From assembly GCF_003334785.1 (NCBI RefSeq), contig NZ_QOWV01000040.1: a DNA stretch of 5,816 nt; one strand, given 5' to 3'. Below are positions 1-5,816 of this stretch, one piece after another. The translations under genes and the position numbers were made by a program. This DNA comes from Escherichia coli. Its GTDB lineage: Bacteria > Pseudomonadota > Gammaproteobacteria > Enterobacterales > Enterobacteriaceae. How positions within the stretch are numbered: position 1 is the first letter of the stretch; each line of letters begins with the position of its first letter. The notes below the pieces were generated by a model. It was given only the letters and a program-made list of their open reading frames with translations, was not told where the DNA came from and did not search any database.

Positions 1-607
<607 letters not shown>

Positions 608-619
608 CAGGAGAACAAC

Positions 620-1717
620 ATGCGTGAAATGAATTTCAGTCAACGGCTGAGGCGTTTCATTGTCAGAAAAACGTTCAGCGCCCCCTACAGGGTGCAGTTT
701 TACGAAGCCCTGCGTTTTCTGATGGAAAATAAACAGCCATTAAAGACCGCACTGGAACAGATGCGGGATGCCTGGACAGACTTTGGACGAAAATGGCATC
801 CCTTTGCTGAACTGGCCACAGACTGCATTGAGTCTCTTCGTGAAAACAGTGGCGAAAATTCTCTGGAATATACTCTTAGTTTATGGGTTCCTCAGGAAGA
901 GGCCGCAGTAATCAGCGCCGGGATAAGAAGTGGTTCAATTGTGGATGCACTGCAATTCGCCACCACTCTTACAGATGCAAAAGAACAAATCCATCAGGCT
1001 ATATGGCAAATGGCTATTTATCCGGTGGGATTGTTAATCATGATGACGGGGACATTATATGTTCTGAATACAGAGCTAATACCTGAACTGAGCAAAATAA
1101 GCTCCCCTGATTCATGGAGTGGTGCTCTTGGTTTTCTTTATGGATTATCTGTTTTTGTCGATAAAAACGGCGCTATATGTGTCGTTCTTTTTGCAGTGAT
1201 CACAGATTTAATATCATGGTCTCTGCCAAACTGGAAAAGCCCTGACAGTGTTCGTACTTTTGCCGACAATATAATGCCATGGAGTATTTATCAGGATATA
1301 CAGGGAGCAACATTTCTCCTGAATATGGCTGCACTTCTGAAAGCCAAAATGACGACGCTCAACTCACTAAACATTCTTCAGGAGTTTGCATCACCATGGT
1401 TAAGCACACGTCTTGACAGCATTATTTACCGCGTCCGCCAGGGGGATCATCTTGGACTGGCTTTGCGTCAGTGCGGTTATCAGTTCCCATCCAGGGAAGC
1501 AGCCAACTTCCTGTCTTTATTACAGGGAGATGGCGCAACAGAGCTAATCAGCAATTATGGTCAACGATGGCTTAGTCAAACACTTCAACGTGTAAAGAAA
1601 CGGGCAAACGTGATTCGTTTAATTATACTGATATTTCTTGTCATGTCTCTCATGTTACTGGTTTTTGCCATTATGGATATTCAGTCTATTAGTGACAACA
1701 GCATGGGTAACTTTTAA
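620..1717 (+). CDS. pilR: Polytopic inner-membrane pilus platform protein, GspF/PilC/TcpE-like (PilR-like)
   Basis: ATG at 620 with AGGAG at 609-613 (6 nt spacer). 365 aa with a soluble N-terminal region and three long hydrophobic segments (AIYPVGLLIMMTGTLYVL, ICVVLFAVITDLISW, VIRLIILIFLVMSLMLLVFAIM). It sits directly after the ATPase and before the prepilin, as in R64 pilQ-pilR-pilS. Confidence 0.7.
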   Translation: MREMNFSQRLRRFIVRKTFSAPYRVQFYEALRFLMENKQPLKTALEQMRDAWTDFGRKWHPFAELATDCIESLRENSGENSLEYTLSLWVPQEEAAVISAGIRSGSIVDALQFATTLTDAKEQIHQAIWQMAIYPVGLLIMMTGTLYVLNTELIPELSKISSPDSWSGALGFLYGLSVFVDKNGAICVVLFAVITDLISWSLPNWKSPDSVRTFADNIMPWSIYQDIQGATFLLNMAALLKAKMTTLNSLNILQEFASPWLSTRLDSIIYRVRQGDHLGLALRQCGYQFPSREAANFLSLLQGDGATELISNYGQRWLSQTLQRVKKRANVIRLIILIFLVMSLMLLVFAIMDIQSISDNSMGNF

Positions 1718-1734
1718 ATAAAACGAGGATATTT

Positions 1735-2349
1735 ATGTTAGTAGAAAATATTAATACCACTTTAACTGGAAATAATAAGAAGAATGAACCTCATGATAAA
1801 GGATGGGCAATTTTGGAGCAGGGAACAATAGCGCTCGTTGTTCTTTTTGTTATAGTCGTTGTTCTGGGTAGTTTGTATGCGTTGCGTACAAGAGCCAATG
1901 TGGCAACTGAAACTGCAAATATACAAACAATTATCACAAGTGCCCAGAGCCTGCTAAAAGGTAGCGATGGATATACATTTACCAGCAGTGCCAAAATGAC
2001 AGGTGACCTCATTCAGATGGGTGCCATTCCCTCTGGGATGACCGTACAGGGCGACAAAACATCTGGTACAGCAACGCTCTATAACGCATGGGGCGGTGCT
2101 GTAACTGTTGCCCCGGCTTCAACATCAGGGTTCAACAACGGTTTTACCGTTACCTATGATAAAGTCCCACAGGATGCCTGTATCCAGATTGCCACACGAA
2201 TCAGTAAAACTGATTTGACTAACGGCATTACCCTGAACAGTACTGCTCACAGTGATGGAAAAGTCACTACTGAAGAAGCCAGTACGCAATGCAAGGCAGA
2301 TAATGGCAGCACTGGTACAAACAAACTTATCTTCACCATCAATGGTTAA
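1735..2349 (+). CDS. pilS: Type IVb prepilin, major pilin subunit (PilS-like)
   Basis: GAGGA at 1725-1729, ATG at 1735. Class III signal: a 23-residue hydrophilic leader ending in Gly (…PHDKG), followed by WAILEQGTIALVVLFVIVVVLGSLYAL, giving Trp at +1, Glu at +5 and a hydrophobic alpha1 helix. Two Cys about 36 residues apart near the C-terminus (DACIQ…TQCKAD) match the pilin D-region disulfide. The mature protein would be about 181 aa. Confidence 0.85.
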   Translation: MLVENINTTLTGNNKKNEPHDKGWAILEQGTIALVVLFVIVVVLGSLYALRTRANVATETANIQTIITSAQSLLKGSDGYTFTSSAKMTGDLIQMGAIPSGMTVQGDKTSGTATLYNAWGGAVTVAPASTSGFNNGFTVTYDKVPQDACIQIATRISKTDLTNGITLNSTAHSDGKVTTEEASTQCKADNGSTGTNKLIFTING

Positions 2350-2358
2350 GGAGTTTTA

Positions 2359-2919
2359 ATGTCAGGGAGTACAATACCCCTCAGACTTATTTTGTTAATC
2401 CTGCTTATTTCTCTTATTTCACCCGCCCGAGCTTCATACGTAGCCCCCAAACAGATCTGGACCAACAAGTGGGACAATTGCTTTGCCGCTGCCGGCGCGC
2501 GCTATCAAATTGAACCATTATTATTGAAGGCCATTTCTGCCGGGGAATCTTCGTTGAGGCCGGGCGCAATTAATATAAATAAGGACAAAAAAACAGGTAA
2601 AGCCAGTAGCACGGATTATGGGCTGATGCAAATAAACTCAACCCATATTCCAAAGCTGATAAATATGGGCGTAATAAAAAAGTCTGAGGATTTAATTACC
2701 AAACCATGCCTTAATATCCATATAGGAAGCTGGATACTGGCAAGACATTTTCAGATATGTGGCGTCAGCTGGAATTGCCTTGGGTCATACAATGCCGGAT
2801 TCCGTAAGGACAGACATGAAACAAGAGAGCAATATGCCAATAAAATATGGAGAATTTATCGTGACATGAAAGGGATATGTCTTCCCGGACAGGGAGGCAG
2901 GAAATGCAGACAATCGTAG
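2359..2919 (+). CDS. pilT: Periplasmic lytic transglycosylase, SLT domain (PilT-like in R64 nomenclature; not the retraction ATPase)
   Basis: AGGAG at 2349-2353, ATG at 2359. Sec signal peptide with ARA/S cleavage motif (…LISPARA-SYV). SLT family motifs in order: catalytic-Glu motif GESS, then DYGLMQIN, then SYNAG. Confidence 0.8.
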   Translation: MSGSTIPLRLILLILLISLISPARASYVAPKQIWTNKWDNCFAAAGARYQIEPLLLKAISAGESSLRPGAININKDKKTGKASSTDYGLMQINSTHIPKLINMGVIKKSEDLITKPCLNIHIGSWILARHFQICGVSWNCLGSYNAGFRKDRHETREQYANKIWRIYRDMKGICLPGQGGRKCRQS

Positions 2920-3560
2920 GCATAAGTCTATCCCCTGTTTATATACTGCCATTGATGTTCACATTTTCCATTATTGGACGAACTCTGCTATTCAGAGTTC
3001 GTTATTTTTTATCTGATACGGGACATCTCTGGTATAAGACACACCCTGCTGTTCTGTCAGGAATATGGCTATACAGTATAGCTGTGGCGTTAATTATTTT
3101 ATCATCATCACCACTGCTCTACCGTATTCATGCTGTCCTTATTCTTTCGTTCATACTGCAAATGGCGGTAACGGATGCACTGACAGGTTTATTACCAGGA
3201 ACATTCACCCGGCGTTTTTTAATTGCAGGAATGCTATCACAAATCACGACTAATATATGGTGGTTCCGTACAACAGAATTTGCCACTGCTGCAATTGTCT
3301 TATTCTGCCTTCATAAATTAGTTAACCGCCATCGTCTTAATATTGGCACTGGAGACCTGTGGCTTATTGCAGGTATTACCGCATGGTCAGGGTTATATAA
3401 CGCCATATGGTGTGTGTTGCTGGGCACAGGAGGATTTGTCTTATGGCATTCAACATGGTGCATAAAAGGGCATAAAGAAGGCCCTCTGGGTCCATGGCTA
3501 TGTTTGGGCCATGTCCTTTTGCTGCTGGATAATCTTTATCAACCACTATGGGTAATCTGA
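2904..3560 (+). CDS. pilU: Prepilin peptidase, A24 family, short form without an N-terminal Cys-rich domain (PilU-like)
   Basis: Polytopic membrane protein. Contains [11 protein letters not shown] (a D…LLP motif like the first catalytic Asp of PilD/TcpJ) and [18 protein letters not shown] (a GxGDxxL…G motif like the second catalytic Asp). I prefer ATG 2904 with GGGAGG at 2892-2897 over the ORF-track start at 2877, which has no well-spaced SD. It overlaps the pilT 3' end. Stop TGA at 3558-3560. Confidence 0.72.
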
Positions 3561-4129
3561 TGAAAAAATATGACCGAGGCTGGGCATCGCTGGAAACTGG
3601 CGCGGCTTTATTGATTGTTATGCTCCTGATTGCCTGGGGAGCGGGCATATGGCAGGACTATATTCAAACAAAAGGATGGCAAACTGAAGCACGTCTTGTC
3701 AGCAACTGGACCAGTGCGGCCCGCTCTTATATAGGGAAAAACTACACGACTCTCCAGGGCAGTAGTACCACAACAACTCCTGCCGTTATCACGACAACCA
3801 TGCTGAAAAATACCGGCTTTTTGTCCAGCGGGTTTACTGAGACAAACAGCGAGGGGCAGCGGTTACAGGCATATGTGGTTCGAAACGCCCAAAACCCGGA
3901 ATTACTACAGGCAATGGTTGTATCCAGTGGTGGCACACCTTATCCAGTGAAAGCACTTATCCAGATGGCTAAGGATATTACCACTGGTCTTGGTGGATAT
4001 ATCCAGGACGGCAAAAAAACTCATCAACGGTCGTCAGATAAACCCGACACCACTGCAGGTCCGTTACCCACAAGGGGTAAGAGAAGTTCTGGGGATAATG
4101 AGCGAACAATTAGCCATATCCACCGCTGA
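3560..4129 (+). CDS. pilV: Minor pilin / pilus-tip adhesin N-terminal module (PilV-like), as encoded in the present frame; it may continue into 4016..4772 (see findings).
   Basis: ATG at 3560 overlaps the pilU stop (TGATG); an alternative ATG lies at 3548. Class III signal: short leader MKKYDRG, then [24 protein letters not shown] with Trp +1 and Glu +5. Thr/Ser/Gly-rich pilin-like body. No Cys in this frame. The last 36 codons before TGA 4127-4129 are low-complexity and Arg-rich. Confidence 0.65.
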
Positions 4130-4772
4130 TTTAACCCGAATCCTGCTTGAGGATGCTCTTCATAATATGTTTATGCCTGCGGATAACACCACAGGAAACA
4201 TAATAAGCAGAATTGAATACATCATGCTGTCGCATGATATAAATGCGCCATTACTGGCAACATTGCTGTCGCCATGGAATATCCGCTCCACGGTTATACA
4301 GGACCCGGCCAGACTTGCAGACTATCTTTCAGCTGACGCTCTCGAACATCTTGCTGAATGTTTTAATCTCAATCCGGACTGGCTGAATGGCCATGAAAAC
4401 TATCCGATAGCGTTGTCCGGTGAATGGCCAGATACTGCTGATAATTTCAGAATGCTTATTAATGATAGCAGCAACACTGAAGTTATTTTCTGGCATAGTT
4501 TCCCCTTCGCAGGAAACACGAAAAGAGAATATTGCGGGGTAATATTGAGACAGAAAAAAGAAATAAATGGTTCTGTAATATATCCGGCACTATCATTATC
4601 ACCAACACTTCTGAACGATGAAAAAAGAAAATGGTTAACTGAATATACAACCAGGCAGAATACAACAATGTCTTTGCGACGCGTCACGTTGAGACCTGGC
4701 CTTGCCGGGAACCTTATTACGGGGAAAACACTACCTGTTAGCTTATTTAATACGTCTTTATTACCCTGGTAA
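4098..4772 (+). CDS. Hypothetical protein with no recognisable motif; alternatively the C-terminal domain of a longer PilV if the frames are joined near 4013-4019.
   Basis: Long open frame (ORF track 3990..4772, TTG start; first ATG at 4098). No signal peptide or transmembrane segment. Looks helical and acidic in the first half ([31 protein letters not shown]), with two Cys (AECF, EYCG). The 3' half is AT-rich. There is no well-spaced Shine-Dalgarno for ATG 4098: GGGGA is 2 nt upstream and AAGGGG about 20 nt upstream. Confidence 0.5.
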
Positions 4773-4857
4773 ATACCAGATAGTACCAAAGTAAAAAATT
4801 ACGGCACATCCGTGTTATAGCGTTGTTTTGTCTAAATTCTGATAAACAGGAAATTAA

Positions 4858-5730
4858 ATGATGAAGAAAAATCATATTACCCGCACCATCATTGCATCTG
4901 CTGTATTATTTTCCTTTAACGCTGCAGCAGCGACGTCATATTTTGAAGCACGTAACGATGCAATGGGGGGCACCGGGGTAGCATCTTCCCATTATGGTGT
5001 GGCACCTCTGGCAAACCCAGCTTTACTGACAAAGCACAACAGCAATGATGATTTCAGCCTTCTTCTGCCGTCTGTCGGGGCACAAGTTGCTGATCCTGAT
5101 GATGTATCAAATAAAGCTGATGATGTTAAAGATGACTGGGATTTGTTTGATAGTGCTGTAGATAACCAGCATGGCGTACAACAGGCAGCAGCAAATCTTA
5201 AACATCGTCTGCAGGAATTCCGCAATATCAATGCAGATGCTCAGGTAGGTGTATCAGCTGTAGCAGCCATGGCAAATGACACTCTGCCGTTTGCCCTTAT
5301 GGTCAAGTCTTACGGAACTGTCAGCGTAAACGGAAAAGTAAACGATGCAGACCTGGATTATCTGGACAAAGTTGCCAATGGAACAATTACCGACGTCGAT
5401 AAGAATGCCCTGACCTCACGCGTATTCGGGCGTGCAGCTGTAATTACCGACGTCGGAATTTCATTTGCCAAAGAACTGGAAACGGCCGGACAAAAATGGT
5501 CTCTTGGCGTCACACCAAAATATCAGCGTGTGGACCTGTTTAACTACAACGTAACGGTTCGTGATTACGACAAAGACGATTTTGGCGGTGACAAGTACCA
5601 CAACACGAAAAACGGATTCAACGCCGATATTGGTGCTTATACAGACCTGAATGACAACTGGACTGTCGGTCTTGTTGCCCAGAACATCATTCCACGCAGT
5701 ATTGACACTAAAGTCGTCAATGGCTTGTAA
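4858..5730 (+). CDS. Secreted outer-membrane protein, putative beta-barrel with a FadL/TodX-like or TraF-like N-terminal signature; possibly truncated.
   Basis: AGGA at 4848-4851, ATG at 4858. Sec signal peptide (MMKKNHITRTIIASAVLFSFNAAAA-TSYF). The mature N-terminus YFEARNDAMGGTGVASS…LANPALL follows the x-E-x(5)-G-x-G-x-A…NPA-L pattern seen at the start of FadL-type barrels. Alternating hydrophobic beta-strand-like segments (WTVGLVAQNII). It ends …VNGL with no terminal aromatic residue. Confidence 0.55.
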   Translation: MMKKNHITRTIIASAVLFSFNAAAATSYFEARNDAMGGTGVASSHYGVAPLANPALLTKHNSNDDFSLLLPSVGAQVADPDDVSNKADDVKDDWDLFDSAVDNQHGVQQAAANLKHRLQEFRNINADAQVGVSAVAAMANDTLPFALMVKSYGTVSVNGKVNDADLDYLDKVANGTITDVDKNALTSRVFGRAAVITDVGISFAKELETAGQKWSLGVTPKYQRVDLFNYNVTVRDYDKDDFGGDKYHNTKNGFNADIGAYTDLNDNWTVGLVAQNIIPRSIDTKVVNGL

Positions 5731-5816
5731 GCGACTCGTCAGAACCGTATTGATATTTACTGAGAGCTCAGATCAACTTTCCAGGGCAACAGATCGCGTA
5801 CCCGGTTTGCCGGCCA

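Follow-up and report, generated by a model that had tools for sequence, protein, structure and literature searches.

Inherited operon packing in a probable IncI1 pil fragment stranded between insertion sequences on an Escherichia coli IncFII plasmid

Tight or overlapping junctions between genes are a normal mark of bacterial operons. What such junctions can tell us at a locus that may no longer be whole is the question raised by the window considered here, by which we mean the entire 5,816-nucleotide stretch of Escherichia coli DNA analysed (contig NZ_QOWV01000040.1, assembly GCF_003334785.1). A preliminary description read its pil genes as a single polycistronic transcript with coupled translation, followed by an outer-membrane protein gene for which a promoter of its own seemed plausible.

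Between the window and E. coli plasmid NZ_AP022179.1 identity is 100%. The window also matches hundreds of IncI1 plasmids at about 99% identity, in two pieces split by a deletion; alignment to many of these covers 97% of the window at 99.1-99.3%, and the gene order agrees with plasmid pSTM709. The gene names pilQ-R-S-T-U-V were rightly assigned, as judged from near-identical annotated plasmids, RefSeq and profile matches; the identities are based on the near-identical plasmids, NCBIfam giving only sub-threshold family matches for several of the ORFs. RefSeq annotates a pilQ pseudogene, a prepilin peptidase, a pilV pseudogene, traE, a traF pseudogene and flanking IS elements, and scanning the sequence against Rfam gave no match. 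Elsewhere the plasmid carries an IncFII repA, eatA, fimbriae, a T6SS and nikAB, and no other pil or tra genes were found there. IS100 and ISCro1 enclose the fragment, and the plasmid that carries it is an ETEC-type virulence plasmid with an IncFII replicon (Table 1). As a whole the window is probably a piece of an IncI1 (R64/ColIb-P9-type) transfer region, pilQ'-pilR-pilS-pilT-pilU-pilV' and then traE'-traF', a fossil with inherited operon packing. Compared with the pil operon of R64, ColIb-P9 and pESBL (pilI-pilV, type IVb thin pilus), it shows the same pilQ-R-S-T-U-V order at about 99% nucleotide identity and identical junctions (+12, +17, +9, -16 and -1 nt, overlaps being negative). Unlike that operon it is a fragment: it lacks pilI-pilP and the 5' part of pilQ, pilV keeps nothing beyond codon 152, the pilV-shufflon-rci arrangement has been lost by deletion of the shufflon and rci, and the replicon is IncFII.

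Table 1. Features of the window (positions count from its first nucleotide; a prime marks an incomplete gene; SD, Shine-Dalgarno sequence)
Feature	Position	Strand	Remarks
IS100 (IS21 family) terminal part	1..76	-	IncI1 homology starts exactly at 77
pilQ' pseudogene, assembly ATPase 3' third	77..607	+	stop TAA 605-607
pilR, type II secretion F-family platform protein	620..1717	+	12 nt past pilQ; SD AGGAG 609-613
pilS, major type IVb prepilin	1735..2349	+	17 nt past pilR; SD GAGGA 1725-1729
pilT, lytic transglycosylase	2359..2919	+	9 nt past pilS; SD AGGAG 2349-2353
pilU, A24 prepilin peptidase	2904..3560	+	start 16 nt inside pilT; SD GGGAGG 2892-2897
terminator-like hairpin inside pilU	2977..3013	+	terminator scan
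TGATG, pilU/pilV stop/start overlap	3558..3562	+	sequence
pilV' pseudogene, tip adhesin first 152 codons	3560..4016	+	RefSeq 'missing C-terminus'
deletion joint in A7 run	4013..4019	.	comparison with IncI1 plasmids
traE', without own start	4020..4772	+	RefSeq models chimeric CDS from 3975
traE-traF ancestral spacer, 85 nt	4773..4857	+	84/85 identical to intact IncI1 plasmid L002
traF', 289/400 codons; signal peptide, probable beta-barrel	4858..5726	+	RefSeq; weak PorV/PorQ match
ISCro1 (IS66 family) end, terminus GTAAGCG	5727..5816	-	identical to end of the plasmid's other ISCro1 copy

Among the single genes, pilQ' is labeled 'T2SS/T4P/T4SS ATPase, missing N-terminus' in RefSeq and has weak GspE/PilB C-terminal matches; the intact pilQ of L002 has 1554 nt. 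The translated PilS leader (...HDKG/WAILEQG) includes the Gly(-1) and Glu(+5) of a prepilin, PilT has an NCBIfam IagB-like match (E 1.5e-36), and PilU matches Pfam Peptidase_A24 (PF01478, E 3.7e-7).

Decay has reached both ends of the cluster and its interior. IS100, whose istA RefSeq annotates on the minus strand 9 nt outside the left edge of the window, has cut pilQ (window 1-76), and ISCro1 has cut traF at 5727, contributing the TAA that closes traF'. Between them, 3,145 bp have been deleted, taking away the 3' part of pilV together with the shufflon, rci and about 22 codons from the start of traE; of 1408 matching plasmids, only 1 has the resulting joint contiguous. The PilV' translation matches PilV of L002 to ...GYIQDGK and then diverges, its frame running on past the joint to a stop at 4127-4129; an in-frame pilV-traE fusion protein was considered and rejected, as the two parts lie in different frames. 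This pilV'/traE' joint at 4013-4019, not the 85-nt gap, is the main discontinuity in the window. In R64, according to PMC4288162, which cites Yoshida 1999, twelve pil genes are needed for pilus biogenesis; the set is incomplete here, with pilI-pilP absent and pilQ and pilV pseudogenes. Neither pilI-pilP nor the traABC regulators occur anywhere on the plasmid. No pilus can be made, because the upstream promoter region and the secretin and assembly genes are gone and both ATPase and adhesin are truncated.

The same losses bear on the reading of the window as a polycistronic operon still active in this plasmid, followed by a separately promoted outer-membrane protein gene with its promoter in 4773-4857. 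The 85-nt gap was correctly delimited (TAA 4770-4772, ATG 4858), and that reading gains from its being the longest non-coding stretch in the window and from its conservation in intact IncI1 plasmids (84/85). A consensus scan, however, found no sigma-70-like + strand site, and no promoter-like hexamers on that strand, in 4773-4857, where a promoter had been thought plausible; promoter-like sites across the whole window are at chance level (13 found vs 12.1 expected), and the spacer fold is unremarkable (z -0.48). If the relic is transcribed at all, a weak -35/-10-like site at 72-99 would be a candidate origin. The ORF before the gap is 5'-truncated traE and no pil gene; traE and traF were never part of the pil operon. 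Against activity of the operon itself, both ends of the segment are IS-cut, pilV and traF are pseudogenes, and the plasmid has neither the pil promoter region nor the traABC activators, all of which makes an active operon with a separately promoted neighbor very unlikely. The supposed outer-membrane protein gene is traF, which is truncated by ISCro1 and encodes a probable beta-barrel.

The overlaps from which coupling had been proposed are real. The pilT stop (TAG 2917-2919) and the pilU start (ATG 2904) share 16 nt, and the pilU TGA (3558-3560) and pilV ATG (3560-3562) share one base. Each of the other gaps holds an SD at the place described, but their lengths, given as 11-17 nt, are 12 nt at pilQ/pilR, 17 nt at pilR/pilS and 9 nt at pilS/pilT; the pilT SD even overlaps the pilS stop, the first A of AGGAG being the last base of the pilS TAA.

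Two of the starts call for a choice. The pilU ORF has in-frame ATGs at 2877 and 2904, and sequence features point to 2904 as most likely the start: SD energy is -11.1 kcal/mol there vs -4.2 at 2877, RefSeq begins the gene there, and a lineage whose PilU is 39% identical has the MQTIV/MRTII start with its 16-nt overlap as well. For pilV the start is most likely 3560, since in the Enterobacter and IncI2 lineages, too, the protein opens with MKK(Y/H/T)D. Were translation to begin instead at another in-frame ATG, at 3548, the two genes would overlap by 13 nt. The starts at 2877 and 3548 are both conserved within the IncI1-like clade; they were rejected for weak or no SD and for their absence from distant relatives. 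Among the SDs, that of pilU is the strongest and that of pilV the weakest (-3.7 kcal/mol). Opening the translation initiation region (TIR) of pilU takes 17 kcal/mol vs ~5 for pilR and pilS, and the minimum-free-energy fold places the pilU SD in a paired region (z -2.25); fold z-scores at the junctions are modest. In E. coli at large, spacings of -8 to +6 nt account for 24% of co-directional gene pairs and spacings of +9 to +12 nt for another 7%, and almost every pair in this second group is on a polycistronic transcript (PMC10666635); PMC4288162 and PMC5801416 treat the IncI1 cluster as the 'pil operon'. The junctions are ordinary operon geometry with no statistical oddity; the tight packing of the IncI1 pil operon is already known, and finding overlaps in it is ordinary.

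The geometry extends well beyond this relic. Spacing of +12/+17/+9/-16/-1 is found in the window and in its relatives L002, L007 and L010, and unites IncI1, IncIgamma/K and a Salmonella lineage of 77% identity; the pilU/pilV TGATG is identical in L002, L007, L010 and L012. In the Enterobacter/Citrobacter and Serratia lineages ATGA takes its place, with pilT/pilU and pilU/pilV at -16/-4 in five Enterobacter/Citrobacter loci (PilU identity 39-41%) and at -1/-4 in Serratia. Conservation in relatives as diverged as these shows that the junctions have been inherited and maintained. An exact-pattern scan of species-representative genomes for the IncI1 pilU/pilV junction gave no match, and a degenerate PilV N-terminus pattern returned only three further members of the Enterobacter/Citrobacter lineage and no intermediate lineages. 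The IncI2 (R721/TP114-type) cluster agrees in gene order and has both a PilV tip adhesin and a shufflon (PMC9045228), but differs from the window in its relaxed junctions, without overlap at pilT/pilU (+3) or pilU/pilV (+12), and in a 120-nt pilS-pilT spacer holding a canonical intrinsic terminator.

In favor of the single transcript first proposed, the junctions are too short for a promoter plus terminator; that an active single polycistronic transcript comes from the relic cluster of this plasmid is doubtful. Papers on TP114, PAPI-1, pMS7163B and pESBL contain no pil transcript maps, and for the pil genes we infer co-transcription and coupling: judged from sequence, the geometry most plausibly fits one transcript with coupling chiefly at pilT/pilU and pilU/pilV. 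The E. coli pair trpB-trpA is an example of termination-reinitiation (TeRe) at an ATGA/TGATG overlap. TGATG is a canonical junction for this process (PMC6728339, PMC10666635), and pilU/pilV resembles the pairs tested by Huber et al. (2019/2023) in having its start beside the stop and in joining co-directional genes for components of one machine. Coupling requires overlaps or very short gaps; the range shown experimentally to support efficient TeRe is -8 to +6 nt, and efficiency falls 40-80% at +14 nt (PMC10666635). The pilU/pilV junction (-1) lies inside that range. The pilT/pilU overlap (-16) is longer than this class allows, the +9, +12 and +17 gaps also fall outside it, and the dependence of pilV on pilU would be that predicted from sequence. 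The SD contribution to coupling differs from gene to gene (PMC6728339); at the two overlaps, the candidate SD in the upstream coding sequence is strong for pilU and weak for pilV. For pilT/pilU a parallel may be E. coli atpH-atpA, where, according to PMC6728339 citing Rex et al. 1994, upstream translation unfolds the downstream ribosome-binding site. As there, the upstream gene contains the downstream start signals, here the pilU SD and AUG, which the predicted fold shows paired; unlike there, the case is a prediction with a modest z (-2.25), and the pairing partner is different in the 77%-identical lineage.

The ancestral pil operon, then, would have been one transcription unit with its promoter upstream of the missing pilI-pilP. 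The three junctions with gaps, each with its own SD, can support independent initiation, and pilR, pilS and pilT would probably initiate largely alone. From pilT to pilU, the final 10 codons of pilT contain the SD and AUG, both in the predicted hairpin, which ribosomes ending pilT would melt, exposing the very strong pilU SD; alternatively, they might re-initiate 13 nt upstream of the stop. From pilU to pilV, classical termination-reinitiation at UGAUG would operate with only a weak SD, and the output of the minor pilin would therefore equal that of the peptidase at most.

It is also conceivable that the overlaps are neutral by-products of genome compaction, pilT having been extended into pilU by loss of a stop codon, for example, and each cistron initiating at its own SD on a shared transcript without functional coupling. 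All downstream starts have some SD, the strongest in the window being that of pilU, which could initiate independently given this strength. The pilT codon after the pilU ATG, TGC, is one substitution from ATGA (-4), which fits extension by stop loss, a model described in PMC10666635. Relatives in IncI2 and in Yersinia ruckeri pYR4, the latter with 20-205-bp spacers (PMC6232867), work without overlaps, so overlap is not needed for pilus assembly. Yet the -16 geometry is retained between lineages at only ~40% PilU identity, pilV combines a very weak SD with a canonical TGATG junction, structure is predicted in the pilU TIR, and translation was strictly coupled in 13 of 14 overlapping pairs tested (PMC6728339). 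Neutral overlap consequently seems to us unlikely, if deserving of some weight, and coupling at the two overlaps is the reading kept here.

A further observation concerns pilU itself. A terminator-like hairpin (2977-3003), 73 nt into the gene, has an 11-bp stem and a 5-nt loop and is followed by UAUUUUUUAU. It is the top match of the terminator scan in the window, and has the predicted form of an intrinsic terminator, a stable stem-loop then a U-tract (-15.5 to -16.3 kcal/mol).

This hairpin is a possible internal attenuation point on the predicted fold, and a reason to think that some transcripts may end early. Transcription would then be uneven, the hairpin and U-run acting as a translation-sensitive attenuator or 3'-end stabilizer, with pilQ-pilT, including pilS, expressed above pilU/pilV. 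Its fold z-score is -5.4, only 0.6% of synonymous recodings fold as well, and a comparable site arises in 11 of 400 shuffles (2.75%). The hairpin is kept in L010/L012 with one compensatory pair, a 77%-identical lineage showing it with a longer U-run and one U-A to C-G double change, and the canonical terminator directly behind pilS in IncI2 gives the family an instance of attenuation downstream of the pilin gene. On the other hand, covariation is not significant (162/500 shuffles reach it, with three distinct sequences only), L010 has lost one of the stem pairs, the Enterobacter lineage does not keep the hairpin, and the site lies in translated sequence, where ribosomes normally suppress folding. 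Taken together, uneven transcription by this route appears improbable.

A broader proposal would have conserved mRNA structures, not overlaps alone, set pilus-machine stoichiometry in IncI1-type pil operons. The candidates are a predicted stem, 581-592 with 646-657, in which the end of pilQ pairs with pilR codons 9-13 and so encloses the start of pilR (covariation not significant, three distinct sequences only), a predicted hairpin, 2887-2897 with 2930-2940, that sequesters the pilU SD lying in pilT, and the terminator-like hairpin in pilU. The last would end transcription whenever pilU is not translated, and pilU/pilV mRNA levels would therefore depend on coupling from pilT. As a model this is decidedly improbable.

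A corrected annotation should be useful in describing the window as an IS-bounded, internally deleted IncI1 transfer-region relic on an ETEC-type IncFII plasmid, whose pil genes ought to be left out of any count of functional conjugative pilus or adhesin loci. If true, a translation-sensitive pilU terminator would be a simple way to keep peptidase and tip adhesin below the major pilin, and it would act in a clinically important plasmid family, IncI1.

The whole window has one perfect match by megablast, on the minus strand of the plasmid pWP7-S17-ESBL-04_2 of Escherichia coli WP7-S17-ESBL-04 (NZ_AP022179.1, 45792-51607). Hundreds of IncI1 plasmids match 77-5730 at 99.1-99.3% identity, always in two pieces that span ~8.8 kb versus 5.65 kb in the window. 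The ancestral order, as in the intact IncI1 plasmid pSTM709 (L002), is pilN-O-P-Q-R-S-T-U-V, shufflon, rci, traE, traF. Peptidase_A24 in PilU is confirmed by Pfam; PilQ, PilR, PilT and TraF match their expected relatives in NCBIfam, mostly below threshold, and an Rfam scan of the window returned no family match.

Features of the window, with RefSeq annotation where available
Feature	Position	Description
IS100 end	1-76	truncates pilQ; IncI1 homology begins exactly at 77
pilQ		T2SS/T4P ATPase, 5'-truncated (RefSeq)
pilR		T2SS-F protein (RefSeq)
pilS		major type 4 pilin (RefSeq)
pilT		lytic transglycosylase (RefSeq)
pilU		prepilin peptidase (RefSeq)
pilV		pseudogene, 'missing C-terminus' (RefSeq)
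traE	3975-4772	RefSeq CDS; codon at 3975 is ATA, within the pilV remnant
traF		pseudogene (RefSeq)
ISCro1 (IS66-family) end	5727-5816	starts GTAAGCG; truncates traF at 5726 and gives its TAA stop

Because IncI1 homology starts only after the IS100 end, two-thirds of pilQ and everything upstream of it have been lost. The pilV remnant follows the sequence of intact PilV through codon 152 (...GYIQDGK), after which the frame is lost. Comparison with pSTM709 places a 3,145-bp deletion in the A7 run at 4013-4019, with loss of rci and the shufflon together with what remained of pilV and ~22 codons from the start of traE. As a result, pilV codon 152 is followed by traE from codon ~23, in a different frame; the traE annotated by RefSeq, which starts within the pilV remnant, is thus a chimeric ORF that lacks the authentic TraE N-terminus (MRLNTTGIAARMMLSLDKKAIGE). 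Among 1408 matching PLSDB plasmid records, just one, that of this plasmid, is contiguous across the joint. An identical ISCro1 end is present elsewhere on the same plasmid. The rest of NZ_AP022179.1 (L001/L008/L009) carries an IncFII repA, eatA, a CS-type chaperone-usher fimbrial operon, IncI1 nikAB, an almost complete T6SS gene cluster with a frameshifted tssM, umuDC/imp remnants and >15 IS copies; pilI-pilP, traABC and other tra/trb genes are absent from it. The plasmid is an IncFII-replicon mosaic and appears to be of the ETEC virulence type, with absorbed IncI1 fragments; it cannot make a thin pilus. Here, the gene overlaps describe a dead remnant.

The overlaps themselves are correctly observed, ordinary and of an already known kind. 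As read from the sequence, the TAG of pilT occupies 2917-2919, pilU has two in-frame ATGs (2877 and 2904), and the A of the pilU TGA (3558-3560) is the A of the pilV ATG (3560-3562); the Shine-Dalgarno (SD) motifs at 609-613, 1725-1729 and 2349-2353 are likewise in place. The remaining gaps, put at 11-17 nt in the preliminary description, are 12, 17 and 9 nt, its only numerical slip. Both pilU starts had been left standing; 2904 is the better and 2877 the poorer by SD energy, RefSeq and distant relatives. The pilU SD (GGGAGG, 2892-2897) has the strongest anti-SD pairing of the window (-11.1 kcal/mol, compared with -4.2 for the 2877 start); RefSeq places the start at 2904; and PilU of the Enterobacter/Citrobacter lineage (39-41% identity; MRTII...) begins at the same place, 16 nt within pilT. 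For pilV, 3560 is the better start, giving an MKK(Y/H/T)D N-terminus common to the Enterobacter and IncI2 lineages; the ATG at 3548 is all the same kept within the IncI1-like clade.

The two overlapping junctions suggest different modes of coupling. The pilU SD and AUG fall inside the last ten pilT codons, and in the predicted fold (MFE -24 kcal/mol, z -2.25) the SD pairs with 2930-2940, with CUUCCC at 2881-2886 as an alternative partner; the predicted cost of opening the initiation region is ~17 kcal/mol for pilU versus ~5 for pilR and pilS. Ribosomes ending pilT would hold this region open, a structure-dependent mode like that of atpHA. The pilU/pilV UGAUG, with the weakest SD (pilV, -3.7 kcal/mol), is a canonical junction with the classical termination-reinitiation arrangement. 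We infer that these are the most likely modes for pilU and pilV. Each of pilR, pilS and pilT has its own SD in a 9-17-nt gap and could initiate de novo; in the E. coli pairs that were tested, re-initiation is 40-80% lower at +14 nt (PMC10666635). 'The pil operon' is a plain label in later IncI1 papers (PMC4288162, PMC5801416), and for the ancestral IncI1 operon the proposed polycistronic, coupled reading seems reasonable.

Such junctions are no rare events. Among E. coli co-directional pairs, 24% lie between -8 and +6 nt and a further 7% at +9 to +12 nt, with 194 of the 201 that have data on polycistronic mRNAs (PMC10666635); overlapping pairs make up ~15% in most prokaryotic groups (PMC6728339). 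Comparison across lineages adds evidence that the pil junctions are maintained (negative values, overlaps; positive, gaps): pilT/pilU and pilU/pilV are -16 and -1 nt in IncI1, in IncIgamma/K and in Salmonella plasmids of 77% nucleotide identity, -16 and -4 in five Enterobacter/Citrobacter loci, -1 and -4 in a Serratia plasmid, and +3 and +12 in IncI2. Spacers are 20-205 bp throughout the Y. ruckeri pYR4 cluster (PMC6232867). The tight adjacency of pilT, pilU and pilV is thus old and widely kept, yet not obligatory for such a pilus. The 16-nt overlap may have arisen by stop-codon loss, since pilT continues past the ATG of pilU with the codon TGC (ATGC; window 2904-2907; 4929-4932 in L004, of the Enterobacter/Citrobacter lineage) in the IncI1 and Enterobacter lineages alike, one substitution from ATGA, and the Serratia junction is TGATG.

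The 85-nt gap at 4773-4857 is as long as described, but the suggestion of an internal promoter there finds no plus-strand promoter-like site in a consensus scan. This stretch is the spacer that separated traE and traF in the ancestor, matching pSTM709 at 84/85 positions; its folding is unremarkable (z -0.48), and it is not a pil operon boundary. The only candidate hybrid promoter reading into the remnant would be GTGACA-16-TACGAT at 72-99, a weak (9/12) sigma-70-like match across the IS100/pilQ' joint; promoter-like sites in the whole window are at chance level (13 versus 12.1 expected).

A 12-bp stem (z -2.9) is predicted between the pilQ 3' end (581-592) and pilR codons 9-13 (646-657), with the pilR SD and AUG enclosed. 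Among relatives, L010 (the 77%-identical lineage) has one compensatory double change, C-G to U-A, and L007 one C.A mismatch, without significant covariation.

A hairpin at 2977-3003 (11-bp stem, 5-nt loop, then UAUUUUUUAU; 2977-3013 with the U-run), 73 nt into pilU, ranks first among the terminator-like sites of the window. Its stability is unusual both for its composition and for the peptide it encodes: the fold has a z of -5.4, just 0.6% of same-peptide synonymous recodings fold as well, and a site as good occurs in 11/400 dinucleotide shuffles. The 77%-identical Salmonella lineage keeps it with a longer U-run; there one pair has changed from U-A to C-G on both sides, a compensatory change, and another pair is broken. 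Covariation across the three distinct sequences is not significant, and the hairpin is absent from the Enterobacter lineage. The pilS-pilT distance is 9 nt in IncI1 versus 120 nt in IncI2, where the spacer contains a canonical intrinsic terminator (GGATAAGCGCC-TTCG-GGCGCTTAT then T7; L003, plasmid pHLJ109-16, ~4262-4292); the Serratia counterpart of this spacer holds a hairpin as well. With such a terminator in IncI2, attenuation past the pilin gene would be plausible in the family. The pilU hairpin could possibly be a translation-sensitive attenuator, the only mildly novel lead here.
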